Shown piece after piece: positions 2,535-43,240 of a DNA stretch of 64,000 nucleotides. The position numbers were made by a program, and so were the translations under genes. The notes under the pieces are model-generated. The model was not told the origin of the DNA. It ran no database searches and was given only the letters and a program-made list of their open reading frames with translations. Within the stretch, counting starts at the first letter, position 1. Each line of letters begins with the position of its first letter. This stretch comes from Escherichia phage vB_EcoM_ESCO8. Location of the stretch: sequence record OM386653.1; one strand, 5' to 3'.

Positions 2535-3404
2535 ATGAAAGGTATTATCTTAGCAGGTGGTAGTGGAACAAGACTTTACCCAGTTACTAAAGGGGTTAGT
2601 AAACAACTATTACCAATTTATGATAAGCCTATGATTTATTATCCACTCTCTGTCCTAATGCTTTCTGGAATTAGGGAAATACTAATAATTACAACACCAG
2701 AAGATCAAATTAATTTTGTAAATCTTCTAGGTGATGGTTCTTCTTTTGGTATTTCCCTACAGTATGCAATACAGGATAGCCCAAGAGGTTTAGCAGAAGC
2801 GTTTATTATTGGTGAGAACTTTATTGGTGAAGATTCTGTAGCACTTGTGCTAGGTGATAATTTATTCTTTGGTCAGAGTTTTGGTAGCATTTTAGATTCT
2901 GCTAAAGAACATATTGAAAAGAATGGTGGAGCTAATATTTTTGGGTATCACGTAAATGATCCTGAAAGATTTGGTGTTGTTGAGTTTGATTCTGAAGGTA
3001 CAGTGGTGAGTATTGAAGAAAAACCAAAAGCACCAAAAAGCAACTATGCAATCACAGGCTTGTACTTTTACGATAATTCTGTTGTACAGAAAGCTAAAAG
3101 CGTTAAACCTTCTGCTAGAGGGGAGTTAGAGATTACAGATATAAATGAGATGTACTGGAAAGAAAAGGCTTTACGTGTCTGTAAACTAGGAAGAGGTTTC
3201 ACTTGGCTGGATACAGGAACACATGAAAGTCTTATGGAAGCATCTCAATTTGTTCATGCAATAGAAAAGCAACAAGGTATGAAGGTTGCATGCCTGGAAG
3301 AGATTGCTTTTAAAAATGAATGGATTACTTTAGACTCTGTAAAAAGTTCTGGAGAGGTTTTAAGTAAAACAGACTACGGTAAGTATTTACTTAAATTAAA
3401 ATAA
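2535..3404 (+). CDS. rmlA: glucose-1-phosphate thymidylyltransferase
   Basis: 289 aa; [18 protein letters not shown] nucleotidyltransferase signature; follows rmlB. Confidence 0.9.
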
Positions 3405-3416
3405 AGGGGGAATTAA

Positions 3417-3971
3417 ATGATTCAAGCAACAAAAATCGAAGATTTGTTGATCATTCAACCTGACGTTTACGGAGATGAACGTGGTTTTTTCTTAGAAAGT
3501 TTTAATCAGGCTTTATATGATCAATACATAGGTAAACAAAACTTTGTCCAAGATAACCATTCACGTTCTATTCGAGGAGTTCTACGTGGGCTTCATTTTC
3601 AAAAGAAAAACCCACAAGGGAAGTTAGTACGTTGTGTTCGTGGTGAAGTTTATGATGTTGCTGTAGATATTAGGGTTGGTAGTCCAACATTTGGAGAATG
3701 GGTAGGTGTTCTCTTATCTGAAAAGAATAAAACACAATTTTGGATTCCTCCTGGTTTCGCTCATGGCTTTGTTGTGATTAGTGACATTGCTGATTTTGAA
3801 TATAAATGTACAGAATATTACGATCCGACTTCAGAGTGTAGTCTTGCGTGGAATGATCCAGATATCAATATTGATTGGGGTTTTGATTTAATCTTTAATG
3901 ATATTAATTTTAAACCTATCTTGTCACAAAAAGATCAGCAAGCCAAAACACTAAAGGAGATCATATTTTGA
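3417..3971 (+). CDS. rmlC: dTDP-4-dehydrorhamnose 3,5-epimerase
   Basis: 184 aa cupin-sized protein with RGLHFQ and FAHGF motifs; third gene of rml cluster. Confidence 0.85.
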   Translation: MIQATKIEDLLIIQPDVYGDERGFFLESFNQALYDQYIGKQNFVQDNHSRSIRGVLRGLHFQKKNPQGKLVRCVRGEVYDVAVDIRVGSPTFGEWVGVLLSEKNKTQFWIPPGFAHGFVVISDIADFEYKCTEYYDPTSECSLAWNDPDINIDWGFDLIFNDINFKPILSQKDQQAKTLKEIIF

Positions 3972-29218: not shown

Positions 29219-29520
29219 CTGTTACAAGAACAGCAACATAGGAACATCATTAATGAAGGATTTAGTATAGGATTTCCCTATCAATTATTCTATATATACC
29301 TATTATTTTTAACACACCCCTTTGTACATAATATAGACAAATAAATATCTATGCCACAAAAATTTTCCGGTATACCCGATTTATTTCGACACACCCCCTT
29401 TTCATAAACGTAAAGTCAATAATATCAATAACTTGCCGCAAAATACTGCTCGCTTGCGAGAGGTGCTTAACGCGATTTTCAGCGCCCCCCGATTTCTGCC
29501 GACCGTCCCCCTCAAATATC

Positions 29521-29543
29521 AATGAGAATTATTATCATTTGCA
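29521..29543. promoter_or_regulatory. Fur-box-like palindromic site 1 (aatgagaattattatcatttgc)
   Basis: 14 of 19 match to GATAATGATAATCATTATC by eye; AATGA...TCATT inverted repeat. Confidence 0.35.
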
Positions 29544-29718
29544 TTATCATTCAATGACTTATAAGACTTTTGATTATTTTCTGAGCAAGAAAGGCACTAC
29601 TCACAACAAAACAGATAAATTCTAAGTAAATCAATGGCTTGGCATTTCTAAACATCTATATACACCTTGCCAAATGAAATGATCTGGCGTGAAATAGTGC
29701 CACCCGTGGAAGATAGCT

Positions 29719-29737
29719 GATAATGATTCTCATTTGC
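29719..29737. promoter_or_regulatory. Fur-box-like site 2 (gataatgattctcatttgc)
   Basis: Exact GATAATGAT half-site; 15 of 19 to Fur consensus; near-identical copy at 42212-42230. Confidence 0.4.
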
Positions 29738-30568
29738 ATACTTTCTGTACTATAAAACCGACTAAAAATCAAGATAATTCTATTTTATTGCGCTTTTAAG
29801 AAAGTAGGCTCAACAAATGGTAAGTTATATTGCAACAAATAGGGATAGTTATGCCCGACAAATAACAACAATAGTATGAAAAATCATCTATTCGGATGTA
29901 AATAATTTTGCGCAATAGCACTGTGTTCCCATAGCGCCCCCTGGAGGGTGGCGCATTATGATCATCAATGTCATTATTCACCATGTTTATTATTGCATAG
30001 CTTATATTATAGCCAATGTTCTAAACATTAGCTAATAATAACGCACCGCAACAATGTAAGGGAATACAATATACCATGTATATTGTTGCGCTTGCAATTG
30101 TTGCAAGCTACATAAGCACAGATAATAACTATCGGTGATGGTTATTATGTGGGGTGTGTAGTTGCGTTATTATTAGCCGCCTATGTGTCCGGCATAGGCT
30201 GCTAATGATACGCTTGCGAATTATATTTCTTGTTATAGTTATTGTATGGAATGATTACTGTATGAAATGATTATTTAGGTAATAGATAGGAAGGTAAAGA
30301 TTAGATCATAAATAGATAGGATATTAATTATTTAGTAATGTTACTAACAATTTAATAGTTACTTTGTGCAACAATTCGATAGATTATAGTTATAGTTTTA
30401 AAGGTTAGATAGATTATATTTAGCTTAGTAATGATTTATATTGGTTATTGTTGTTTAATATAAGGTTATCAATGAGATAGTAACAGTAAGTTATAAATAA
30501 AGGTGAGATAATTAGTTTTAATTTAGTTAGATAACTTATTATTTTATAGGTTAGATGGTCATAAGTTA

Positions 30569-30589
30569 AGAATGATTATCATTATTGCA
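30569..30589. promoter_or_regulatory. Fur-box-like site 3 (aagAATGATtATCATTATtgc)
   Basis: Perfect 13-bp palindrome AATGATtATCATT matching the Fur-box core. Confidence 0.4.
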
Positions 30590-30626
30590 TTATGCAGTTT
30601 ATTGCATAAATAATCAGCTATAAATA

Positions 30627-30645
30627 AGAATGATTATCATTTAAG
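30627..30645. promoter_or_regulatory. Fur-box-like site 4 (aagAATGATtATCATTtaa)
   Basis: Same perfect palindrome 45 bp from site 3. Confidence 0.4.
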
Positions 30646-30855
30646 AGGAAAGACAAGAAAAAGGCTGTTTTTTCCCGATAGTTACATTGAGAAATTAAAA
30701 ATAAGCGGTCTAAAACACGCTGTAAGCGCCTTATGATCTTCATGGTATGGTTGTTCATCTGCTCCTTGATTAGCTCGATACCGCGATCTATTCACTTTTT
30801 TCGGTGAACGTTTTTGATAGGTAAAAGCTATCATATTTATTTAGGTAAAAAGAAA

Positions 30856-30872
30856 GGGCGCTTTGTGCGCCC
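30856..30872 (-). terminator. terminator hairpin (gggcgcTTTGTgcgccc) at 3' end of minus-strand array
   Basis: GC hairpin followed by T-rich run on minus strand, just downstream of CDS 30889..31272. Confidence 0.5.
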
Positions 30873-30888
30873 TGGTATGAAATGTTAT

Positions 30889-31597: not shown

Positions 31598-31656
31598 GCG
31601 GGAAACCATTTCCCGCCTACGTGATAAATAATAATGTAAGCGTGATCCGGTGTCAA
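31598..31656 (-). promoter_or_regulatory. PeSL-like cassette (TTGACA -35, -10, hairpin GCGGGAAAtggTTTCCCGC)
   Basis: Minus-strand reading: TTGACA, 16 nt, TTATTA, then GC hairpin, then RBS and start of 31348..31578. Confidence 0.55.
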
Positions 31657-31669
31657 TAGATAAAGTTAA

Positions 31670-31906
31670 TTATTTTGCATAATCAATAACAGCGCAGATT
31701 TTATCATTTACATCTTGTAAATCAAAGGCATAGGCGATCTTGCCTTGCAATTTTCCACGGGTGAAACAGATACGATAAACGCCGTTTTTACTATCCTCTT
31801 CTGATTTTAGTATTTTTGCAACCGTTGCAATTAACAGATCATCAGAGTAAGCGATAAAGCCACCACGTAAAATAGGTGATTTTTTGAGGATCATGACTTC
31901 TTTCAT
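31670..31906 (-). CDS. hypothetical protein (78 aa)
   Basis: ORF track. Confidence 0.45.
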   Translation of the reverse strand: MKEVMILKKSPILRGGFIAYSDDLLIATVAKILKSEEDSKNGVYRICFTRGKLQGKIAYAFDLQDVNDKICAVIDYAK

Positions 31907-32334
31907 TTTCTTTTTCCTGTTTTCGTTTTGGGTATGTTCTACCCTCTAAAAACAATATTAAACTGTTGTGATTTATCGGTCAATAGATGAGATTGTAAAG
32001 ATTTGATAGTTTATTCCTTTGATGTTTTGTTGTTTGATAGTTATTAGCTATCAATATATAGCGGGATCTTCCGGTGATTATCTTCCCCTGTCCCCAGGTG
32101 CCGCCCGTTCCATAATAATAATCAAAAGCAGGGTAAAAGGCAAGATAAAAAGCAAATTATTTCCTATGTGCTTTAAACGCTCTAGATAGCTTTATAACGG
32201 CTTTTTCATCCTGGTAAGGTGATTAATCATCACTACCTTGTTTAAGCGGTTATAATCGGTTTTAGGCTGTTTTACGCCACCTTTACGCCTATTCTTTACG
32301 TGTTGTTTCCATCGTGAAAAAAGAATACAAAAAA

Positions 32335-32351
32335 GGGCGCTTAGTGCGCCC
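32335..32351. terminator. bidirectional terminator hairpin (gggcgcTTAGTgcgccc)
   Basis: Flanked by A-run and T-run; downstream of CDS 32369..32758. Confidence 0.5.
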
Positions 32352-32368
32352 CTTTCTTTTACCGTGTA

Positions 32369-32758
32369 TTAATATTCGTTATAATACATCGCTAATTTTT
32401 CATCAAAAGCTGATTGACGATCCGCATACTCCCAGAACATTTCCTGATCCTGTTGTTCGTCATCATCCATCATGTTGAATTGCGCAACCTCCTGGTAAGT
32501 GATCGCTATATTATAACGATAGGTGATCTCTTCTGCGATGTTTTCCGGTAAAGATGATTCTACACTGTCTAACAGCATATCTAACATCATTTCAGCCGCT
32601 TTTTCATCATTATCAAAGCAGTAAGCAGACCATGCCGCATGATGTTTATTTTTCATCTTTGCAATCAAGCCGTTTACTAAAAAAGGCGCTACGTTGTTAA
32701 CGATACCCTGTAAAGATTGGAATTTTTCAACGTTAGAAACAGAAACCAGGTTGCGCAT
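32369..32758 (-). CDS. hypothetical acidic protein (129 aa)
   Basis: ORF track. Confidence 0.5.
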   Translation of the reverse strand: MRNLVSVSNVEKFQSLQGIVNNVAPFLVNGLIAKMKNKHHAAWSAYCFDNDEKAAEMMLDMLLDSVESSLPENIAEEITYRYNIAITYQEVAQFNMMDDDEQQDQEMFWEYADRQSAFDEKLAMYYNEY

Positions 32759-32782
32759 AGTATTTACCTTTTTTGATTACCT

Positions 32783-32842
32783 GGCGGGAAACCATTTCCC
32801 GCCTACGTGGTAAATAATACCATATTGGGGATCGGTGTCAAT
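32783..32842 (-). promoter_or_regulatory. PeSL-like cassette (hairpin GGCGGGAAAtggTTTCCCGCC)
   Basis: TTGACA at 32837-32842 (minus), TATTAT -10, hairpin 32783-32803, then RBS of 32369..32758. Confidence 0.55.
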
Positions 32843-32847
32843 ACTTT

Positions 32848-33234
32848 TTATTCAATATAAATCAAATTATCTTCACCAATGTAAGCATGCACCGATGGCA
32901 TTAATTTAGCTGCATTTGTTAGGCGGTTGGCGGTGTTAGTAGTGTATATTTCAGGGCGATCCCAAAAGCCTACGCCGTGACCGTTACGGGTGAAATGTAA
33001 GTCATTCCCGATCTGGTTTGCTGTTGCGCCGTCGCTCATTGCCTCAGAGATAGCAGCATCATTGGCATCACAATAAGCCGCTACGTCATGAATGATCCGC
33101 TGATGGGCTTGATCTGAAAAATCATAATCGTCTAAGTTATCAATAAAATAGCCTTCATGATCCCTGGCTGATTCAGCAAAAATAAAGGCTTCTTTATAAC
33201 CGTTGATGATTTCAATAATGATTTCAGTTTTCAT
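32848..33234 (-). CDS. hypothetical protein (128 aa)
   Basis: ORF track. Confidence 0.5.
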   Translation of the reverse strand: MKTEIIIEIINGYKEAFIFAESARDHEGYFIDNLDDYDFSDQAHQRIIHDVAAYCDANDAAISEAMSDGATANQIGNDLHFTRNGHGVGFWDRPEIYTTNTANRLTNAAKLMPSVHAYIGEDNLIYIE

Positions 33235-33464
33235 GCTGTACGCTCGACAATAATAATGGTTTGCGGGATCTCGTTTTCTACTACTAACAAGGCTTTTTTC
33301 TGTGTGATAGATATTTTAACACGTTGTAAAGTAGCGGTAAAATCTTTCATTTCATTATGCGCGGATTTAGTGCAATGCCAGATCTCAGGTTTACCTATTT
33401 GCAAGCCGCGTAAAAATTCTGTTTTACCTGTCTTATTCGTGATCATTTGATTCACCTTATCCAA
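33231..33464 (-). CDS. hypothetical protein (77 aa)
   Basis: ORF track. Confidence 0.4.
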   Translation of the reverse strand: MDKVNQMITNKTGKTEFLRGLQIGKPEIWHCTKSAHNEMKDFTATLQRVKISITQKKALLVVENEIPQTIIIVERTA

Positions 33465-33579
33465 TACCGTGGGAAGATAGGATCATGTTAGCCATAGTTG
33501 CAACCAATCCAACCGATAACGCCAGGCCAACTACTACAACCGTGAAAATTTTCTCTAACATGATTCTACCCTCATTAAT

Positions 33580-33641
33580 GGGCGTTGCCTTATTGCCCCG
33601 CCCTATGTCGTACACTTTACCAGATAACAGCATATTGTCAA
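33580..33641 (-). promoter_or_regulatory. PeSL-like cassette (variant hairpin)
   Basis: TTGACA at 33636-33641 (minus) followed by GC-rich dyad gggcg...cgccc. Confidence 0.4.
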
Positions 33642-33642
33642 A

Positions 33643-33837
33643 CTATTTTTTATAAGGGATCAGTAAACTTCTCGCTATTGCTTCACGTAAACCTTTACTT
33701 TTTATTAGATCTATTGTTGCAGGGTGGCAAGTAAAAGCCTTTGACCATTTTTGATCACCTGGTTTACGGGCGAAAATGTAAACTTCTCCGTCGATTTCAT
33801 CCCAACGAGTATTGCTTGTTAGTTTTTTAAGCGCCAT
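33643..33837 (-). CDS. hypothetical protein (about 64 aa)
   Basis: Track ORF 33643..33867 runs into the upstream hairpin; internal ATG (MALKKL) with aaaagagaaa RBS preferred. Confidence 0.4.
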   Translation of the reverse strand: MALKKLTSNTRWDEIDGEVYIFARKPGDQKWSKAFTCHPATIDLIKSKGLREAIARSLLIPYKK

Positions 33838-33858
33838 GCTGATTTCTCTTTTAGTTGT

Positions 33859-33916
33859 GAGCGGCACTATTGCCGCCCTACGAAATACATTCTACCCGAT
33901 TTATAATTGTTGTCAA
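33859..33916 (-). promoter_or_regulatory. PeSL-like cassette (hairpin GCGGCActatTGCCGC)
   Basis: TTGACA 33911-33916 (minus), hairpin 33861-33876. Confidence 0.55.
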
Positions 33917-33917
33917 A

Positions 33918-34187
33918 CTATTTTTTCAAGCTCGACCAGTCAAAACACGGGGCGATCTCGTTAAAACTTGTACCCTGTAAAGCACATAATTTTTTAGCAA
34001 TAGCCGCCGTAACCTGGCGTTGTACGCGAGGATCTGCTACTGATTGGAGAAAGTAGGCGGCTTTATATGTGATCATGCTTTCGCCTGTTTCCTTGTTAAC
34101 GTGGTGCACGGTTTTAGCCTTATCATCTTTTACCAGGGTGTAACCGGATTCGATGGCCTTGATTGCAACGTCCAAAGATATTTTCAT
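33918..34187 (-). CDS. hypothetical protein (89 aa)
   Basis: ORF track; aagagg RBS. Confidence 0.45.
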   Translation of the reverse strand: MKISLDVAIKAIESGYTLVKDDKAKTVHHVNKETGESMITYKAAYFLQSVADPRVQRQVTAAIAKKLCALQGTSFNEIAPCFDWSSLKK

Positions 34188-34206
34188 GATTTACCTCTTT
34201 ATTGAC

Positions 34207-34227
34207 GGCGGGGAATACTCCCCCGCC
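34207..34227 (-). promoter_or_regulatory. stand-alone GC hairpin (GGCGGGGaatactCCCCCGCC) in 5' leader
   Basis: Hairpin between two minus-strand genes with no TTGACA hexamer present. Confidence 0.4.
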
Positions 34228-34234
34228 TTATTAA

Positions 34235-34405
34235 TTACTCTTCATCGTCGCCGTTATAGTATTCAATGCCGTTTTCATCGGTTACAGTAATGTTAACGCC
34301 ACCGATAGCAACACGATCACGGGCAAACGTCATGGCTTCATTTAAATCTTCAGACCAAAAAATATTGTGACCTTTGCGCGATACGTAAAACATAGTTGGG
34401 ATCAT
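34235..34405 (-). CDS. hypothetical protein (about 56 aa)
   Basis: Track ORF 34235..34435 begins inside the hairpin; internal ATG (MIPTMF) preferred. Confidence 0.4.
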   Translation of the reverse strand: MIPTMFYVSRKGHNIFWSEDLNEAMTFARDRVAIGGVNITVTDENGIEYYNGDDEE

Positions 34406-34427
34406 GATTTGTTTCTCTTCTGTTATG

Positions 34428-34485
34428 AGCGGCACTATTGCCGCCCTATGTGATAAACTTTACTACGTTGTTTGCCTAGTGTCAA
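34428..34485 (-). promoter_or_regulatory. PeSL-like cassette (hairpin GCGGCActatTGCCGC)
   Basis: TTGACA 34480-34485 (minus), hairpin 34430-34445. Confidence 0.55.
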
Positions 34486-34486
34486 A

Positions 34487-34771
34487 TTATTTTTTAATGT
34501 TTTGCCCTACAAAATTAATCACTTCCTTAAGCTGTTTCTCAGTCATGATCGTGCCTGGCAATTCTTCTTTGATTTCTTCCGGTAGATAGATATTACCGCG
34601 CCAGGTTAATAAACAACCGTTTTGATCTTCGCAGATAGAATAAGAGAAGATCCACTCATTATCATTCTCAAGCTCCCAAAAGCACAAAAAATCTTCTTTC
34701 CCCAGGTTTTCAACGGTTAAACATAAGCCGCGACGTGCTGCATAGTTGGAAAGTGCTTTTGTGATCTTCAT
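34487..34771 (-). CDS. hypothetical protein (94 aa)
   Basis: ORF track. Confidence 0.45.
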   Translation of the reverse strand: MKITKALSNYAARRGLCLTVENLGKEDFLCFWELENDNEWIFSYSICEDQNGCLLTWRGNIYLPEEIKEELPGTIMTEKQLKEVINFVGQNIKK

Positions 34772-34790
34772 AGCTTATCTCTTCTTTTAA

Positions 34791-34854
34791 GGCGGGGGAA
34801 ACCATTTCCCCGCTCTATGAGATACAATATACTACCCGTTCAGTGTGCTGTCAA
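34791..34854 (-). promoter_or_regulatory. PeSL-like cassette (hairpin GGCGGGGGAAAccaTTTCCCCGC)
   Basis: TTGACA 34849-34854 (minus), hairpin 34791-34813. Confidence 0.55.
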
Positions 34855-35178
34855 TCAATAATCTTCAATATTTTCTACATTGACAAAAGCATGTTTATTT
34901 TCTAAGTTTTCGCCGTACCATTGCCCCATGTTGATTTCTGCGGTGCGCAACCAGGACATGCCGCGTTCTATCTTTTTGCTCGCAATGTCGATCCGGCTTT
35001 TGCATAGTGATTTAGCTTGCAATGTAAAAACACTATTGCCCTGTAATGCTTCCAGGTCATCATGTGCAAGGCGATACTCTTTAAAGCCTGATTCTATCAT
35101 TTCAATCGCATCAAGGAAACGAGCGCGATGATAGAAAAAATCAGAGTTATCCAAATAAACACCGATCACAGATTTCAT
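34855..35178 (-). CDS. hypothetical protein (about 107 aa)
   Basis: Track ORF 34855..35238; internal ATG (MKSVIG) preferred; TTGACA-N17-TAAACT promoter without hairpin upstream. Confidence 0.45.
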   Translation of the reverse strand: MKSVIGVYLDNSDFFYHRARFLDAIEMIESGFKEYRLAHDDLEALQGNSVFTLQAKSLCKSRIDIASKKIERGMSWLRTAEINMGQWYGENLENKHAFVNVENIEDY

Positions 35179-35507
35179 AATTTTACCCTTTTGTTTGCGG
35201 CCTTTGCCGTTTTCAAGATATAGTTTAAAGCATAACAAAAAATTGTCAAGCCTTTAAAGCGTACAACTATAAAACCTATTAAAACACAATGTATAATAAC
35301 ATGGCTATAGTAGCAATACAACATAAAGCCATGCTTGTTTTCCTTCCTTCCTCGTATGCTGGATTTATTACGCTATATTGTACGGGAATAATTTTCATGC
35401 TGTTTCCTTAATGTCTTAAAACGTGGTTTACAATAGAAACAAGCATACAGAAGAAAAAAGATCCTGTCAATAAGATACCGAAAAATAAATGTAAATAGGG
35501 CATGGTT

Positions 35508-35810
35508 TTACTCCTTAAAAAAATCATTGACAATTAAACTGATAACGCCCAGCACCAGATCACCAGGTAGCGCCGCGCTTTCGTTGTTGCTTGTTTGCAC
35601 TTCCTCACTAGTACCAGCATGATAAATCGCATGGTAAGCAATAGTATAATAACCTTTCGTTATTTCTTTAAGATTAATGATTAGCACGTTATTTGTTTCA
35701 TCTTGAAACAATTTAGCGGTGATAGTATTGTTTTCTTTTACACTATCGACTTTTATTGATGGATCATTTACACCAGAAAAAAGAAAAAACGTTTTAGCTA
35801 TGCCGTTCAT
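35508..35810 (-). CDS. hypothetical protein (100 aa)
   Basis: ORF track. Confidence 0.45.
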   Translation of the reverse strand: MNGIAKTFFLFSGVNDPSIKVDSVKENNTITAKLFQDETNNVLIINLKEITKGYYTIAYHAIYHAGTSEEVQTSNNESAALPGDLVLGVISLIVNDFFKE

Positions 35811-35857
35811 GTAGTTCTCCTTTGTTGTGTGTATCTTATAACGTGCTTTCTATGTTG

Positions 35858-36259
35858 TCAATCTTTTATCTCGGTGCATTTTGCTAGGGTATACGTTGCA
35901 AGTGCTGACACTAGTTTTTCATTGCTACGATCTGCGGCTGTACTGTGTACTTTTTGAATACTTTTTAACCACGGCGTAAAATTTTGAGTAGTGAGCACAC
36001 TGGTAATAATTTCACATGGCACATCTTCATTTAAGCCATTAACAATAGATTTATCTATTTTTGCCGTTAGTTGTGTAACAGCACCATAAGCGATCATGTG
36101 TGAATCCTCCATGATTTCATCGGGGATCGCATTATTAATAAGCATGACGTTTTCCATTGCATCAACGGCGCTTAATTCTGCTACTGTGGAGGATATCGCC
36201 GCGCTAGATGTTCCAACCATGCCAAAAGAGATTAAACCAGCGATCAATAATTTTTTCAT
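35858..36259 (-). CDS. putative secreted protein (signal-peptide-like N-terminus)
   Basis: Track ORF 35858..36271; start at MKKLLIAGLISFGMVGTSSAA after gagg RBS. Confidence 0.45.
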   Translation of the reverse strand: MKKLLIAGLISFGMVGTSSAAISSTVAELSAVDAMENVMLINNAIPDEIMEDSHMIAYGAVTQLTAKIDKSIVNGLNEDVPCEIITSVLTTQNFTPWLKSIQKVHSTAADRSNEKLVSALATYTLAKCTEIKD

Positions 36260-36267
36260 TTCTTGCC

Positions 36268-36450
36268 TCATATATGTTTTATTGAGATTATATTGTCACT
36301 ATATACAACGTTTTTCAACGTGTCAATAAAAATCTTATTGCCTTCAATCCCCAGGATCACGCCGCTAGTTATGAAGCCATATTGATCACGATATCTGGCG
36401 CATAACCTTTGCCCCTGGGCTAGTGCCTTGCTTATTTCTTCTAATCTCAT
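36268..36450 (-). CDS. hypothetical protein (60 aa)
   Basis: ORF track. Confidence 0.35.
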   Translation of the reverse strand: MRLEEISKALAQGQRLCARYRDQYGFITSGVILGIEGNKIFIDTLKNVVYSDNIISIKHI

Positions 36451-36540
36451 TTTAAAGCTCCTGTAAAGCCGTCTAACGTTGATTTATAGGCTTGCCCTGG
36501 CGTTACCATTGCCTATGGGTAACAAGCCTCTATATAAGCT

Positions 36541-36566
36541 AAAAGGGCGCTTATTGCGCCCTTTTT
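36541..36566. terminator. bidirectional terminator (aaaagggcgcTTATtgcgcccttttt)
   Basis: Perfect hairpin flanked by A4 and T5. Confidence 0.55.
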
Positions 36567-36567
36567 G

Positions 36568-36705
36568 TTATTCGTTCCAGTATCTTTTTGTGCTGCGATC
36601 TCTTTTTGTTTTGTTCCGCTTATCGCCTTTTTTGGTGATCTCTTCGTTCCAATTTTTACGCGCCTTGCTGCGGTTGAATTTTTCGATCTGCTGTGATGCG
36701 TTCAT
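36568..36705 (-). CDS. small basic protein (45 aa)
   Basis: Not in track; aagagga RBS; Lys/Arg-rich; followed by terminator. Confidence 0.4.
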   Translation of the reverse strand: MNASQQIEKFNRSKARKNWNEEITKKGDKRNKTKRDRSTKRYWNE

Positions 36706-36720
36706 GTTTTTTCCTCTTAA

Positions 36721-37080
36721 TTACGCCACGTTATGCTGTTTTGCCAGGGTTACGATCATGCTTGCAATATATAACCAATAATTTTCCCGCTCACGGGTAA
36801 CGGTTGTTTCTTTACTTGTTTCTTTTATGTACTTCCATTCAATTAACAAGTGATCGATCTCGTTATAATCAAAAGCAATATTGATTTCTGACGGTAAACC
36901 TTGTAACCAGGAGGCTATCGCCTTGATCATGTTATGATTGTAACGTTTTTGATTATCGGGATACCAGTATTCAGATTTAAAACGGCGCATCAGTTCGGTG
37001 ATCTTTTCTTTTTCTGTTGTAGTACCATTAAAAGAAATAGCCGACACAATGTAAGTTTTAATTGCTTTTACTGATTTCAT
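36721..37080 (-). CDS. hypothetical protein (119 aa)
   Basis: ORF track. Confidence 0.5.
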   Translation of the reverse strand: MKSVKAIKTYIVSAISFNGTTTEKEKITELMRRFKSEYWYPDNQKRYNHNMIKAIASWLQGLPSEINIAFDYNEIDHLLIEWKYIKETSKETTVTRERENYWLYIASMIVTLAKQHNVA

Positions 37081-37100
37081 AATCTTATCTCTTTATTGAT

Positions 37101-37159
37101 GGCGGGAAACCATTTCCCGCCGTTGTTGTTACTTTACTTATAAATCATGCTACTGTCAA
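37101..37159 (-). promoter_or_regulatory. PeSL-like cassette (hairpin GGCGGGAAAccaTTTCCCGCC)
   Basis: TTGACA 37154-37159 (minus), hairpin 37101-37121. Confidence 0.55.
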
Positions 37160-37166
37160 GCGGATA

Positions 37167-37337
37167 TTATTTATTTTTTAACGTTAATGTTCCCAGCTTA
37201 TCAGCGTGACGCAGACCAGGGAAGATCCATTTTCCTGATTCATCTTTTACCGGGGCTTTAAGCGTAGCGCCCAAGTTGGCGGCATTAACTTTACGTGCAA
37301 CGTTGCGAGCGGCTTCACGGGTGGCGAAAGTGATCAT
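37167..37337 (-). CDS. small protein (56 aa)
   Basis: Not in track; sits between two cassettes. Confidence 0.4.
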   Translation of the reverse strand: MITFATREAARNVARKVNAANLGATLKAPVKDESGKWIFPGLRHADKLGTLTLKNK

Positions 37338-37408
37338 GGTGTTTTCCTCTTCTCTTTGTTAGGCGGTTGGCTATTCCACCGCCTTGATGAATACAGTTTA
37401 CTCTATTT

Positions 37409-37567
37409 TTATTTCTTTGCAACTACTTTTATATTTTCTTTCTTTGCCTCTTCCACCTGATCCGCCCACTGCTTACCCCACGTTTGAGCGTTATAGTGAT
37501 ATTGACAAAGAGCAACGCCACGTTTTAAACCAGAGATAGACTTTTTACCACATTGGCAAGTTTTCAT
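37409..37567 (-). CDS. small zinc-binding protein (52 aa, CQCGKK...CQYH)
   Basis: Not in track; aaggga RBS. Confidence 0.4.
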   Translation of the reverse strand: MKTCQCGKKSISGLKRGVALCQYHYNAQTWGKQWADQVEEAKKENIKVVAKK

Positions 37568-37578
37568 TTTGTGATCCC

Positions 37579-37794
37579 TTAGTTGATAATTGTCAAAGTA
37601 AAATCATAATCTTTTGACAGTTTATATTGCACCTTGTTACCGTATATGTCACCTTTACGTAAAGATCCACGGATACCGATAACATCCTTCACGTCTTTTA
37701 AATTTTTCACGCCTGTAATGTCTTTGTTGAAATACTCGTCATCTGAAAATAAAACTTGACTTGCATTTTTTAACAGTGTGCGGATATTAGCCAT
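37579..37794 (-). CDS. hypothetical protein (about 71 aa)
   Basis: Track ORF 37579..37842 reads into hairpin; internal ATG (MANIRT) preferred. Confidence 0.4.
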   Translation of the reverse strand: MANIRTLLKNASQVLFSDDEYFNKDITGVKNLKDVKDVIGIRGSLRKGDIYGNKVQYKLSKDYDFTLTIIN

Positions 37795-37815
37795 TTTGAT
37801 AATCTCTCTTACTAT

Positions 37816-37874
37816 GAGCGGCACTATTGCCGCCCTATGCATTACATTTTACTGATTTTAGTTATCTTGTCAAG
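37816..37874 (-). promoter_or_regulatory. PeSL-like cassette (hairpin GCGGCActatTGCCGC)
   Basis: TTGACA 37869-37874 (minus), hairpin 37818-37833. Confidence 0.55.
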
Positions 37875-37881
37875 ATTATTT

Positions 37882-38109
37882 TTAGTTTAATCCATCCAGG
37901 CACAACAAGCGATCAACATTCAGATCGGTTAGGCTAATCGTTGGCACCTGGTAGGATTCGATGTACTCAACGCTCGACCATTGCCCGAAGTTAGCGACCG
38001 CCCAGCTATTCAAGGAAGAGTGAAGATCATCCCCTTTCTTCTCGGTGATAACTGCTACTACCTGGGAGCTTCCAACCGTACCGGATACGCGAACAATAAC
38101 GATAGCCAT
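37882..38109 (-). CDS. hypothetical protein (75 aa)
   Basis: ORF track. Confidence 0.4.
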   Translation of the reverse strand: MAIVIVRVSGTVGSSQVVAVITEKKGDDLHSSLNSWAVANFGQWSSVEYIESYQVPTISLTDLNVDRLLCLDGLN

Positions 38110-38131
38110 AATGATAACCTTTCTTTGATTT

Positions 38132-38191
38132 GGCGGGAAACCATTTCCCGCCCTATGTGATATATCTTACACTAATTTAAAACGTTGTCAA
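38132..38191 (-). promoter_or_regulatory. PeSL-like cassette (hairpin GGCGGGAAAccaTTTCCCGCC)
   Basis: TTGACA 38186-38191 (minus), 16 nt, TAAGAT, hairpin 38132-38152. Confidence 0.55.
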
Positions 38192-38286
38192 ATTATTTTC
38201 TATTTCTTCCGTAATAGCCTAATTTATGATCTAAGCTAAAACGTTTTGTGAGATAGGTCGAACGATGTTTCATTTTTATATCTCCT

Positions 38287-38526
38287 TTACATTCCAACCA
38301 TCGCGGCGCGGATTGCAGTTTTACTGAACTTGTAACCGTCTGGCGTTTTATCTTGATCCATACTTTCAAGAAATAACATCATATCACGCGCTGCGTCATT
38401 CTTATTGGTGTTAGCTGCGATAAATTCACGCGCAAGATTATAAAAACCTTCATCATTGTTGATCCAAAGGCTTACATTCCAATGAGTTTTGTTTTTGTGA
38501 CCTAAGAACATTTTTGATTTAGCCAT
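38287..38526 (-). CDS. hypothetical protein (79 aa)
   Basis: ORF track. Confidence 0.45.
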   Translation of the reverse strand: MAKSKMFLGHKNKTHWNVSLWINNDEGFYNLAREFIAANTNKNDAARDMMLFLESMDQDKTPDGYKFSKTAIRAAMVGM

Positions 38527-38548
38527 GATGTTAATCTCTTTTTCAGTG

Positions 38549-38609
38549 AGGCGGGAACTATTCCCGCTCTCTATGTAATACAGTTTACTCTTTTTATTCG
38601 TGCTGTCAA
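38549..38609 (-). promoter_or_regulatory. PeSL-like cassette (hairpin GCGGGAActaTTCCCGC)
   Basis: TTGACA 38604-38609 (minus), hairpin 38549-38572. Confidence 0.5.
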
Positions 38610-38614
38610 TGCTT

Positions 38615-38980
38615 TTATAAATCTTTTTTACGTTTTACATCGCTTGCATGACTGTATACAGTGATCCCATTGTCACGGCAAAAACGGGAAAGGTAGGCAT
38701 AATTTGAAAACTCTTTACCTTCCAGGTTGATAACCTTGCTAAATTCTTCCATTGCTACAGTGTCAAAGTGATCCCCGTATCCATATTGGAACGGCACGTT
38801 TACTACTTCGATCAGTTTACCGCCGATCTCAACGTCAACCATCAAAGAGAAATAAGTATTACCATAAGACTTTTGAAACCAGCGACGGGCGCTAATATGT
38901 ACCGCTTCAATGCTGGATAGTTCAATTTTAGCAGTGTTAGCCAGGGTAGCATAAGCAGAAACATTGATATTTTTAGCCAT
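38615..38980 (-). CDS. hypothetical protein (121 aa)
   Basis: ORF track. Confidence 0.5.
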   Translation of the reverse strand: MAKNINVSAYATLANTAKIELSSIEAVHISARRWFQKSYGNTYFSLMVDVEIGGKLIEVVNVPFQYGYGDHFDTVAMEEFSKVINLEGKEFSNYAYLSRFCRDNGITVYSHASDVKRKKDL

Positions 38981-39075
38981 AGTCTTTAATCTCTTTTGAT
39001 TAGTTAGGAGTATTCCCGATAAAAGTTATTATGCTTGTACTATCGTTCGTTGTCAATAGCACAAGACTAAAACTT

Positions 39076-39255
39076 TTAACGATAATCATCATAGGCTTTA
39101 TTGACCTGGCGAATATAGCATTCAAAAGCTAGATCAATAGATTTATATTCACGGATATAATCACCATAGGAAACCACATACATTTCTATAGCTTCCTCAT
39201 ATGCCAAGATGATAGAATCTAAACCTACGATCTCAGTCTTTGCAATAATAGCCAT
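39076..39255 (-). CDS. small acidic protein (59 aa)
   Basis: Not in track; between cassettes. Confidence 0.4.
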   Translation of the reverse strand: MAIIAKTEIVGLDSIILAYEEAIEMYVVSYGDYIREYKSIDLAFECYIRQVNKAYDDYR

Positions 39256-39401
39256 GCTTTTATTCCTTAGTAATGTTTCAATCTATATAAGCATTATAGC
39301 TTACTGATTTCAGGTGTCAAGTGATTTTTTATTTCACCTTATGGGGCGTTGCCCCGCTTTATGTGGTACATATTACGGGGCTTGTTTGCATATGTCAAGC
39401 C

Positions 39402-41158: not shown

Positions 41159-41180
41159 GATTATTTCTCTCTTCTGTTAT

Positions 41181-41238
41181 GAGCGGCACTATTGCCGCCC
41201 TATGTGATACATCTTATCAGATTAAAAAACGTTGTCAA
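41181..41238 (-). promoter_or_regulatory. PeSL-like cassette (hairpin GCGGCActatTGCCGC)
   Basis: TTGACA 41233-41238 (minus), 16 nt, TAAGAT, hairpin 41183-41198, then RBS and ATG of 40886..41158. Confidence 0.55.
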
Positions 41239-41609
41239 GAATATTTTTAAAAGATAATAACCGCTACTACAATCCAAAATGGAACGGCTAGAATGATAGC
41301 GTTAATCGTTCCAACCGTCAAGCTGTTTTCTTTCTTGATCATCGTTATCAACCTTTTATAAGTAATGTTATTGTGACGGTGGATTGTGGAGATCCTCACC
41401 TTTGCCCGTCCTGCATTGCGCCCTCCTTTTGTTTATTGTCGTTGTGCCTCGCCCCCCTCGACAAGATGAATAATACGCTACCAGGTGAGGAACGTCAACC
41501 CCTTTTTTAATCTTTTTTCATTTCTTTTTTGCTTGCTATCTATAAAGGAAAGGGGCTATTATCTTTCTACCGCGCCAACCAGGGCGCACATCAAAGAAAG
41601 GGCGATACC

Positions 41610-41876
41610 ATGACAAATACTACTTTACACCTCATGCACTCATTAGGCTGGCAAGGCGGCACGGTGCACCAGGTAGCAAGCGCAACGGGCTTAAAGGTTG
41701 AAACCGTTCTCAACCTGGGCGATCATAAGGTGGAAGAAATAGATCATTTTGATACGTTCGCAAATGGTTATCTATGGGCTTGCAGTGGCGGCGGGGAAAG
41801 CAAGATCCCGCCAGGGGCGCGGGGCGACATGTATTTTTGGCTAGGTGTCCTATCCTGGCAAGAAAACAAAAAATAA
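41610..41876 (+). CDS. hypothetical protein (about 88 aa), GC-rich
   Basis: Track ORF 41529..41876; internal ATG (MTNTTLHL) after aaagaaagggcg preferred; higher GC than surrounding phage DNA. Confidence 0.35.
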   Translation: MTNTTLHLMHSLGWQGGTVHQVASATGLKVETVLNLGDHKVEEIDHFDTFANGYLWACSGGGESKIPPGARGDMYFWLGVLSWQENKK

Positions 41877-41878
41877 TC

Positions 41879-41907
41879 TTGACAAGCCCAGGGATCGGGC
41901 TTATACT
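41879..41907 (+). promoter_or_regulatory. strong sigma70-like promoter (TTGACA-N17-TATACT)
   Basis: Perfect -35 and near-consensus -10; no ORF for about 800 bp downstream. Confidence 0.4.
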
Positions 41908-42138
41908 GTTTTACATACAGAAGAGGAAGCGCCACCCCCACGGCGTAAAGGCGGGGCTAACATACCAGGGCACTACTGGTTGGAAGGTTGATCGCCGGTA
42001 GCTCGTCTAAAATAAATTTGTAAAGAAATGTAAAGATAAAAATAATCGCTTGCTTTTGTTGTTGGTTATGCTATTCTTATTGTATGGCGAGGGGACACGG
42101 GAGCGCGAGACAAACACCGCCCCTGCGCGTTATTCTCT

Positions 42139-42252
42139 AAATGAGAAAATTCTCATTTGCTAATGATTCTCATTCTCTTACTGAGAATGATTATCACTTA
42201 CATACTTAAATGATAATGATTCTCATTTACAAATGAAAATGATTATCATACG
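42139..42252. promoter_or_regulatory. cluster of five Fur-box-like palindromic sites
   Basis: aatgagaaAAttctcatt (8+8 palindrome), AATGAttcTCATT, gAATGATtATCAc, GATAATGATtctCATTtac, AATGATtATCATa within 114 bp. Confidence 0.4.
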
Positions 42253-42269
42253 CACACCCATAAAAACAC

Positions 42270-42478
42270 GAAATTGAACTTTTCATTTTTGATTTTTCTA
42301 CGGAAAAAGGCAAAAAACTTTAAATAAACTGGGGAATTTTTAAAAAATTGAAGTTTTCATTTTCAAAATCTGGATAGAAATACGTACAAAAACTTTAAAT
42401 AATTTTGACCAAACTTGAACTTTTCATTTTCAAAATTTGTACCCAAAAATCTGTAAAAACTTTAAATAATTTTGTCCT
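42270..42478. repeat. three tandem ~66-74 bp direct repeats (ttgaaSttttcattttcaaaat ... aaaactttaaataa)
   Basis: Units begin near 42274, 42348, 42414; each has a TTGAA..TTCAA dyad and a TTTAAATA box. Confidence 0.55.
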
Positions 42479-42688
42479 TTTTATAAAAATGATTTTACTG
42501 TTCTGTTATAAGTAGTAGTTAAGAGATAGTATGCCTTTTAAAGATCAGATACCATAGTCAAACAAACAAATTAAATACTTTATTAACAGAGTACAGAATA
42601 ATATTTACTCTGGATATATTATTCAGAGGGTGGATTTCCGTACATGAAACCCACACCCCTTTTTATAAAAATAAAAATTTTCAAAATA

Positions 42689-43240
42689 TCAGGAAATATC
42701 AGATTGTGCTTTTAGATAAACAGCAAGGTCTGTATGCCATTTTCCTAAAAGATTTTGTCCTTTCCAACAGTCCTTATTTTCCACATCACGATCCCACATT
42801 CCCATTTTGATACCATAAATAGAATCATAAGGGCTTGCCTCTACGAACTCCTTATCTGCGTAAGCGATAAGTTTATTTTTGAGATCTTCATTTTGTGTGT
42901 ATTTAAGATACAAACCACGCTTGACAATCTTCTCCCGTAAAGAAGTCCAAGTAGCTTCATCGTAATCTTTAACTAATCTACCTAGTCGCTTATAATATGC
43001 CTGTTCTTTTTCTCCTGTATATCTTAGATCTCCGGTTAAAATAGAAGATGCAATGTTGTAATCATAAAACAAACATGCTTTTCTCCACATCATATATTGT
43101 TCCACACAAGTAAATTCAACAGAACTTGTAATAGAATTATTATACTTGGGAGCTAAAGGTTCAATAAAAGATGATAGATACCAGTTGCTAAATTCATCTT
43201 TTGCCGAGAAGAAGAACACATACTTATCAGTAATCCGCAT
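42689..43240 (-). CDS. NADAR-domain (YbiA-like) protein
   Basis: 183 aa; FFFSAKDEFSNWY, CVEQYMMWRKA, GQNLLGKWHTDLAVYL fit the NADAR pattern (F.F....SN..., ..EQ..QA.KA, G.NLLG). Confidence 0.65.
   Translation of the reverse strand: MRITDKYVFFFSAKDEFSNWYLSSFIEPLAPKYNNSITSSVEFTCVEQYMMWRKACLFYDYNIASSILTGDLRYTGEKEQAYYKRLGRLVKDYDEATWTSLREKIVKRGLYLKYTQNEDLKNKLIAYADKEFVEASPYDSIYGIKMGMWDRDVENKDCWKGQNLLGKWHTDLAVYLKAQSDIS

Follow-up and report, generated by a model that had tools for sequence, protein, structure and literature searches.

We analyzed a 64,000-nucleotide stretch (hereafter the window) of Escherichia phage vB_EcoM_ESCO8 (record OM386653.1), a phi92/phAPEC8-like phage in which a gap among the early minus-strand genes holds a GC-rich island. 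Within this island, a plus-strand promoter of the host sigma-70 type (promoter P1) precedes a predicted structured non-coding RNA, which we named RNA1. Comparison of homologous copies indicates that the promoter and the RNA structure have been under selection across two phage subfamilies, and we have high confidence that both elements are real. RNA1 looks like an undescribed RNA family in an undescribed but conserved module. Arrangements of this general kind, in which a promoter drives a structured RNA next to iteron-like repeats, are known in other replicons; the architecture found here and its array of Fur-box-like palindromes are not. Our best overall explanation is that the island is a composite whose promoter P1-RNA1 unit belongs to a control region or replication origin, and our confidence in this explanation as a whole falls slightly below even. 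The specific role of a transcription-activated replication origin, drawn from the anatomy of the locus, is a tentative assignment.

Over 41200-42700 the window shares 99.9% identity with Escherichia phage outra (Justusliebigvirus, Stephanstirmvirinae), and many relatives match at 97-98%. In outra and its relatives the locus is annotated only as "hypothetical protein", with an added "repeat_region" in two records. GC skew and the list of open reading frames (ORFs) define it as a gap of ~1.5 kb (41159-42688) within a long block of minus-strand early genes. A first-pass annotation of the window had described this site as a GC-rich island with a strong orphan promoter in AT-rich non-coding DNA, and much of that description held. 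The GC content is 0.496 over 41380-42000. We scanned the 64 kb in 600-bp segments taken every 10 bases (mean 0.372, standard deviation 0.027). The 600 bp from 41400 have a GC content of 0.497 (z = 4.5), above all sampled segments, of which the highest (0.495) lies at 41371; the segment with the lowest GC content (0.258) directly adjoins the island, from 42131 onward. The near-consensus promoter TTGACA-17-TATACT occupies 41879-41907 exactly and agrees with the consensus at 11 of 12 positions. The longest plus-strand ORFs in the 780 bp that follow (41908-42688) have 37 and 36 amino acids, GC dyads are present, and the ORF at 41610-41876 is GC-rich (0.494, and 0.517 at third codon positions, GC3).

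Two parts of the earlier description have to be replaced. The island is not a single uniform non-coding element. It consists of a minus-strand leader, a plus-strand cassette with a gene of 88 amino acids (aa), and promoter P1 with RNA1. The sequence that had been quoted as an example of the island (41422-41463) belongs to the minus-strand leader, which follows a promoter of that strand at 41498-41470. Because the GC-rich pieces are separate functional elements, their GC-richness is no evidence that the island was acquired horizontally as one block.

Sensitive blastn searches matched 237 phage records. In distant genera, alignment is confined to query positions ~531-657, which correspond to 41910-42036, directly downstream of promoter P1, and identity there is 82-85%. 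The distant matches come from Mydovirus (KB57, Mydo), Certrevirus (CR9, phiTE), Seunavirus (PVP-SE1, 4MG), and Raoultella phage Ro1. Nothing else in the region can still be aligned in distant genera. Phages that carry RNA1 infect E. coli, Salmonella, and Klebsiella, among others. We drew loci from GenBank phages, IMG/VR, and metagenomes, and built a covariance model from an alignment of 31 distinct sequences (A1). The model identified a single copy in the window at 41903-42014 (114.5 bits, E = 2e-31), one copy per related genome, and two copies in Ro1, and it rejected chance pattern matches in GC-rich bacterial genomes. In every relative examined, the RNA piece has a GC content of 0.53-0.67 and stands ahead of DNA with a lower GC content (0.21-0.46).

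The proposal that a structured non-coding RNA lies downstream of promoter P1 is supported by covariation in one of its hairpins and by the retention of a promoter in all 38 homologous copies. RNA1 is predicted to form a short hairpin (stem P1) whose loop pairs with a downstream G-run in a pseudoknot, a second hairpin of variable length (hairpin P2), and an invariant single-stranded tail. Four of the six pairs in hairpin P2 are compensatory in A1, and five of six in a model-based alignment (A3). The covariation score of this hairpin is 0.17-0.19, compared with 0.064 for shuffles (none of 500 reached the observed score) and at most 0.053 when the pairing partners were slid. Within near-identical groups (L005 versus L014, and the window versus phi1_175008), the second pair has switched from A-U to G-C, so several independent events are likely. 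In the lineage of environmental phage L044, hairpin P2 has shrunk to a stub capped by C(UUCG)G, a motif typical of RNA, which argues for RNA rather than DNA. The pseudoknot pairing changes from CCCC:GGGG to CCAA:UUGG in pEp01, L030, L034, P8734, and the second Ro1 copy. Insertions and deletions of 1-10 nt in the C-run and in hairpin P2 exclude a coding function. The outcome is a candidate RNA family described by a covariance model, a promoter, and a predicted fold.

Several observations weigh against this account of RNA1. Support for the pseudoknot comes from one compensatory column, which the tool counted in four sequences and which possibly reflects one or two events. Stem P1 is invariant and thus carries no covariation information. 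RNAalifold favors pairing the GGCG segment with the CGCC farther downstream, in the tail, and this alternative stem is itself invariant. Ensemble probabilities, calculated with pseudoknots ignored, have a mean of 0.51 for the upstream GGCG pairing and 0.18 for the alternative; because all GGCG and CGCC segments are invariant, covariation cannot choose between the two pairings. The folding energy of 41914-42012 is no better than that of shuffles (z = -0.21), and the case for an RNA therefore rests on comparison, not on thermodynamics. There is no terminator-like plus-strand site in 41908-42600, and so no intrinsic terminator or defined 3' end that belongs to RNA1. The 5' end is a prediction based on the promoter.

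Promoter P1 was the best-scoring site in a 3.5-kb promoter scan, and its spacer falls within the 16-18 bp that separate the -35 and -10 hexamers of sigma-70-type promoters. Sites matching at least 11 of 12 positions number 14 in the whole window, compared with 4.0 ± 1.9 in shuffles. Ten of the 14 lie on the minus strand at 20-39 kb, including nine in the early block at 27.7-39.3 kb, and promoter P1 is the sole plus-strand site of this quality inside the minus-strand gene block at 17-47 kb. A sigma-70-type promoter (9-12 of 12 matches) is present in all 38 homologous RNA1 copies. The distance from the end of the -10 hexamer to the start of stem P1 is 15-23 nt in each of these copies, despite promoter sequences that differ between genera. 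This retention suggests that the promoter is functional. The label "orphan" does not fit it: promoter P1 has a conserved product and belongs to a conserved module of several parts. Elsewhere in the window, eight sigma-70 promoters matching at least 11 of 12 positions, all on the minus strand, are spread through the early genes at 31656-39320.

The same comparison bears on the idea that the conserved block acts as DNA, either as a single-strand initiation or primosome-assembly hairpin or as a set of origin protein-binding sites. The block adjoins the putative origin repeats, structured single-stranded DNA would also show hairpin covariation, and the neighboring leader downstream of the second promoter is conserved in sequence without a consensus RNA structure. 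That all 38 copies keep a correctly spaced promoter although its sequence has turned over is a point against a DNA element, as are the UUCG-capped mini-hairpin in one lineage and the G-U pairs of the plus strand, which would be A-C mismatches on the other strand. We consider a DNA element very unlikely.

We compared RNA1 with known RNAs and with host genomes. The covariance-model check proposed in the first-pass annotation returned no match to Rfam 15 on the whole window at gathering thresholds, and nothing overlapping RNA1 was found at E <= 10 on 41350-42720. ARAGORN predicted no tRNA or tmRNA genes in the window. Blastn of the RNA region in 5,426 complete E. coli genomes gave no match. A pattern scan of 185,579 species genomes yielded only chance matches in GC-rich genomes and one phage contig; when the four chance matches were compared with the covariance model, three were unmatched and the fourth reached only E = 0.58. 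We therefore rejected a host origin for RNA1, given the lack of an E. coli match and the chance nature of the pattern matches. A metagenome scan added one divergent lineage (L044/L048), its remaining matches being due to chance. Literature searches recovered no relevant transcriptomes or non-coding RNAs of these phages, and full-text searches recovered no description of RNA1. The pseudo-ToxI of phiTE, a type III antitoxin mimic with 36-nt repeats, was also rejected because it occupies a different locus: in phiTE, the escape locus maps to 106.7 kb (PMC3475682), and the homolog of the RNA1 module to ~39.7 kb.

Raoultella phage Ro1 (locus L016) has an unusual arrangement. On its reverse strand, at ~2806-3520, an ORF of 197 aa with no Pfam match is inserted exactly after the ...GGATCGCTGGTA of RNA1. 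Past the insert come another promoter and then a complete RNA1, which belongs to the divergent P8734 type. The insertion resembles a mobile (homing-type) element next to a conserved RNA gene.

RNA1 might instead be a small RNA or protein decoy that host RNA polymerase makes early and that acts in trans, as a base-pairing regulator or as a sponge for a host or defense factor, with the proximity of the repeats being incidental. The strong early-type promoter and compact fold are consistent with such a role, and the invariant single-stranded tail of ~15 nt would suit recognition by a conserved partner. GGA motifs occur in the 5' purine-rich stretch and in the tail. In Ro1, where a free-standing ORF sits beside the RNA gene, the presence of a second, complete copy means that an intact one has been kept. 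A trans-acting RNA would nevertheless lack a terminator or defined 3' end past its tail, and no complementary target, including an antisense target of the invariant tail, was found in the 64-kb window. In two subfamilies, the order and spacing of RNA1, the second promoter, the palindromes, and the repeats are rigidly kept, which argues for a functional link among them. We regard a trans-acting role as unlikely.

Another possibility is that RNA1 is a cis-acting leader that controls its own read-through, either as a polymerase-modifying antiterminator of the HK022 put type or as a riboswitch-like pseudoknot that toggles between GGCG pairings. The structure begins just past the -10 hexamer and lacks its own terminator, and GGCG can pair with either the upstream or the downstream CGCC (means as given above), all three segments being invariant. 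The hairpin, A-rich linker, and loop pairing of RNA1 share their topology with small pseudoknot aptamers. HK022 put RNA and other promoter-proximal leaders are similar in architecture, with two stem-loops just past an early promoter and no terminator of their own. In contrast to put, there are no genes downstream of RNA1 that would need antitermination, or indeed regulation of any kind, and no Rfam riboswitch or leader family was matched even at the relaxed threshold. We judge a cis-acting leader to be improbable.

Beyond RNA1, the order of elements is conserved: a pair of TGTAAAGA copies, a second promoter (promoter P2), a GC-rich leader, one to five palindromes, three direct repeats, and AT-rich DNA. 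The TGTAAAGA pair is kept in most genera, not in UPEC06, and may be an UP-element-like or activator site. Promoter P2 lies 170 bp downstream of promoter P1. We considered its GC-rich leader as a second structured RNA and rejected this candidate, which has no consensus structure and a z-score of -0.01; an AUG-led frame of 18 codons in the leader is not conserved. The three direct repeats are candidate iterons that hold the same position in relatives, where they are ~65 bp long, and their core, compared by eye, is genus-specific. The core is CGATCGAGAmC in KB57, PVP-SE1, and phiTE (with variants in Kashira), AACCYCTCAAGT in UPEC06 and pEp01, and a TTTAAATAA-containing unit in the window, phAPEC8, and phi1_175008. 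Such divergence between lineages is expected if the repeats co-evolve with a phage-encoded binding protein. The hairpin at 42628-42664 is the first with a T-run past RNA1, and it probably ends transcription from both sides, that of the plus-strand non-coding unit and that of the NADAR gene arriving on the minus strand. Defining this ordered module (promoter, RNA, promoter, palindromes, repeats) makes the location and control of the origin addressable. The rV5-like and phi92/phAPEC8-like phages concerned are common in therapy and biocontrol collections for E. coli, Salmonella, and Klebsiella.

The anatomy of the module is origin-like, in that tandem promoters are aimed at genus-specific repeats and at the most AT-rich 600 bp of the window, and the whole is bounded by a terminator. 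In keeping with this, the rV5 genome paper marks the equivalent area with a "non-coding" box, and its skew analysis did not locate an origin (PMC3606486). Under the control-region reading that we favor, the promoter P1 spacer would hold the terminator hairpin of the upstream gene, and promoter P1 would transcribe RNA1. No terminator follows RNA1, so transcripts from promoters P1 and P2 should read through the palindromes, the repeats, and the AT-rich DNA; they would end at the hairpin and T-run at 42628-42664. Host RNA polymerase entering the repeats and AT-rich DNA would open or prime the DNA in the manner of the T7 primary origin, T4 oriF/oriG, or ColE1. RNA1 would form the folded 5' domain of this transcript and might act as a stabilizer, a factor-binding handle, or a regulatory switch.

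We compared the module to these known systems. The T7 primary origin consists of the tandem promoters phi1.1A and phi1.1B followed by an AT-rich region, and T4 oriF and oriG each combine a promoter with a downstream unwinding element and use R-loop priming. The module resembles them in directing promoters, a tandem pair as in T7, into AT-rich, gene-free DNA where transcription could open or prime the duplex. It differs in using host sigma-70-type promoters, in having a conserved, pseudoknotted RNA at the start of the transcript, and in placing long genus-specific repeats and Fur-box-like palindromes in between; it is also a candidate origin from sequence. Like ColE1 RNA II, RNA1 would be a structured non-coding host-polymerase transcript upstream of an origin, with folding that decides the downstream outcome. 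RNA1 has no sequence or Rfam similarity to RNA II, is much shorter, and is accompanied by no evident promoter for an antisense RNA I-like transcript; the phage module contains iteron-like repeats and ColE1 contains none. Three or more direct repeats next to AT-rich DNA are a feature shared with iteron origins (lambda ori, P4 ori/crr, T4 oriE, and theta plasmids). The phage repeats differ in being long (~67 bp), with no initiator gene identified nearby and no conserved DnaA boxes.

Other findings count against an origin at this site. No TTATCCACA-like DnaA box is conserved within 900 bp downstream of RNA1 across 35 loci. An equally possible site for the origin is a second AT-rich non-coding region, at 29.2-30.9 kb, where these palindromes also occur. 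Across these phages, GC skew tracks transcription, not replication, as also reported for rV5 (PMC3606486). The role as an origin is read purely from anatomy.

The palindromes raise the possibility of host control. In the window, Fur 7-1-7 matches in 42158-42248 comprise three sites with 13 of 14 positions and one with 12 of 14, and two sites match 16 of 19 positions of the 19-mer. The consensus of 56 palindromes, AAA-TGAGAAT-G-ATTATCA-TTC, matches 13 of 14 positions of the Fur 7-1-7 unit. At least one copy is present in 33 of 35 distinct loci, and the first copy follows RNA1 by 114-149 nt in most loci and by 169-175 nt in three. Fur-like sites with at most two mismatches occur nine times in the window, compared with 0.9 expected, four of them here and four at 29.5-30.6 kb. 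Among phages of E. coli, Salmonella, Klebsiella, Serratia, Erwinia, and Pectobacterium, the palindrome stays the same and the repeats next to it diverge, which is the pattern expected for a conserved host protein and not for a phage protein.

The E. coli Fur box GATAATGATAATCATTATC is made of two overlapping 7-1-7 repeats (PMC11353095). The phage palindromes closely resemble this unit, as the consensus indicates, but they lie in non-coding DNA of a lytic phage and not over a recognizable iron-regulated promoter, and a G at position 4 departs systematically from the Fur motif. We thus treat them as candidate Fur sites whose true partner could be a phage protein. If they are genuine host Fur sites, the origin or the non-coding transcription may be gated by host iron status, or Fur may be titrated by multiplying phage genomes, which would de-repress iron uptake; RNA1 would then be a regulatory, riboswitch-like, or priming 5' domain of a Fur-gated transcript. 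We consider this scenario rather improbable. Were it true, the control region of a lytic phage would be linked to host iron sensing.

The positions and composition of the individual elements are listed in Table 1. Promoters P1 and P2 are distinct from stem P1 and hairpin P2, which are parts of RNA1.

Table 1. Elements of the gap at 41159-42688, in order of position (GC content as a fraction).
Feature	Position	Strand	GC	Description
Hydrophobic small ORF, 32 aa	41247-41345	-		Annotated in phage EmilieFrey
GC-rich 5' leader of the predicted minus-strand transcript	41386-41469	-	0.56 (41400-41469)	Contains GGAGATCCTCACCTTT at 41388-41403
Sigma-70-type promoter	41470-41498	-		TTGACG-17-TATTAT; 10/12 matches
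Promoter-like site	41533-41562	+		TTGCTA-18-TATTAT; 9/12 matches; upstream of the 88-aa gene
88-aa gene	41610-41876	+	0.49	phrog_19316; putative five-helix protein; restricted to these phages
Promoter P1	41879-41907	+		TTGACA-17-TATACT; 11/12; the "orphan" promoter of the first-pass annotation
GC dyad, then T-rich tail	41884-41902	+		AAGCCC-N7-GGGCTT; inside the promoter P1 spacer
RNA1, predicted structured non-coding RNA, ~92 nt	~41914-42005	+	0.58 (41914-42010)	5' end predicted from the promoter
Stem P1 (CGCC:GGCG), predicted	41930-41933 with 41942-41945	+		Invariant
H-type pseudoknot, predicted	Loop C-run 41935-41939 with G-run 41953-41956	+		G-run 10 nt downstream
Hairpin P2, predicted	41961-41968 with 41976-41982	+		Covariation; length variable
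Invariant tail	~41990-42005	+		AUCGCCGGNAGYUCG; most conserved segment of RNA1
Two direct copies of TGTAAAGA	42017-42036	+		Just upstream of the -35 of promoter P2
Spacer and second promoter			0.23	
Promoter P2	42050-42077	+		TTGCTT -35, extended -10 TGcTATTCT; conserved in alignment A5
GC-rich leader after promoter P2	42084-42137	+	0.65	3' half ACAAACACC..CCCTGC..ATTCT conserved; adjoins the palindromes
Palindromes, repeats, and remainder			0.23-0.27	
Five-palindrome array	42139-42248			Four fit the Fur 7-1-7 motif TGATAATnATTATCA (42158, 42182, 42211, 42234)
Three direct repeats of ~67 bp	42270-42477		0.23-0.26	Candidate iterons
AT-rich spacer	42478-42627		~0.26	
Hairpin that can fold on both strands	42628-42664			Followed by TTTTT on the plus strand

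The 88-aa gene upstream of promoter P1 forms a cassette with its own predicted signals. Promoters equivalent to the site upstream of it were seen ahead of the ORF that occupies the same slot in KB57 and PVP-SE1. The dyad in the promoter P1 spacer (41884-41902) can be read as the terminator of the 88-aa gene, overlapping promoter P1. This reading follows from L044, which has no upstream plus-strand ORF and has a T-rich spacer without a dyad. Judged by eye, promoter P1 spacers vary in sequence by genus yet remain GC-rich with dyad symmetry. The GC3 of the 88-aa ORF (0.517) compares with 0.280 ± 0.061 for 38 long ORFs of the window (z ~3.9). The occupant of the slot varies: KB57 and PVP-SE1 have an unrelated DUF7170 gene, phi1_175008 has both genes, and L044/L048 have none. 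Homologs of the 88-aa ORF fall into a mere 21 protein clusters, none of them seen in a bacterial chromosomal context, and the longest contigs that carry them are the size of phage genomes (~140-148 kb). Searches found no Pfam family, no host homolog, and no donor for this ORF.

These observations partly support the suggestion that the GC-rich ORF is a horizontally acquired moron. Its own promoter and terminator, its orientation opposite to the surrounding genes, its atypical GC3, and the variation of the slot among relatives fit a moron; the foreign source, in a host or plasmid, was not found, and the idea covers only the small ORF cassette, not promoter P1 or RNA1. As an explanation of the whole island, in which a GC-rich moron was acquired and the strong promoter is a stray one without a dedicated product, it is largely refuted for the promoter and the RNA, and we give it hardly any credence. 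It would account only for 41533-41902. Conservation in the region is highest in the RNA downstream of the promoter; the RNA region is unmatched in E. coli genomes, as the ORF is in hosts; and L044, the one examined phage without the ORF, keeps promoter P1 and RNA1.

On the other side of the cassette, the predicted promoter at 41498-41470 would restart minus-strand transcription toward the small membrane ORF and the early genes. The 32-aa ORF at 41247-41345 gave no protein-family match. The motif GGAGATCCTCACCTTT in the leader (minus-strand RNA: AAAGGUGAGGAUCUCC) is identical in Justusliebigvirus and Mydovirus and absent from PVP-SE1, phiTE, and UPEC06, and this restricted distribution places it outside the core module. 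It is similar to the AAGGUGGAUCGCC part of RNA1. We rejected GGAGATCCTCACCTTT as an inverted partner of the RNA1 tail because it is confined to these two genera.

The window contains a second large non-coding region at 29219-30888 (GC ~0.30), in which the lowest 300-bp GC content of the whole window is found, at 30251. Palindromes at 29523, 29718, 30567, and 30625 lie on either side of GC dyads and of an AT-rich core that contains short repeats of the GATAGATTAT type. We found no strong sigma-70 promoter and no RNA1 copy in this region, which could be a second origin or a regulatory hub. The gene that borders the RNA1-containing non-coding region, at 42689-43240 on the minus strand, codes for a NADAR-domain protein (PF08719, E = 2e-36) and is annotated in phage EmilieFrey as a YbiA-like N-glycosidase.

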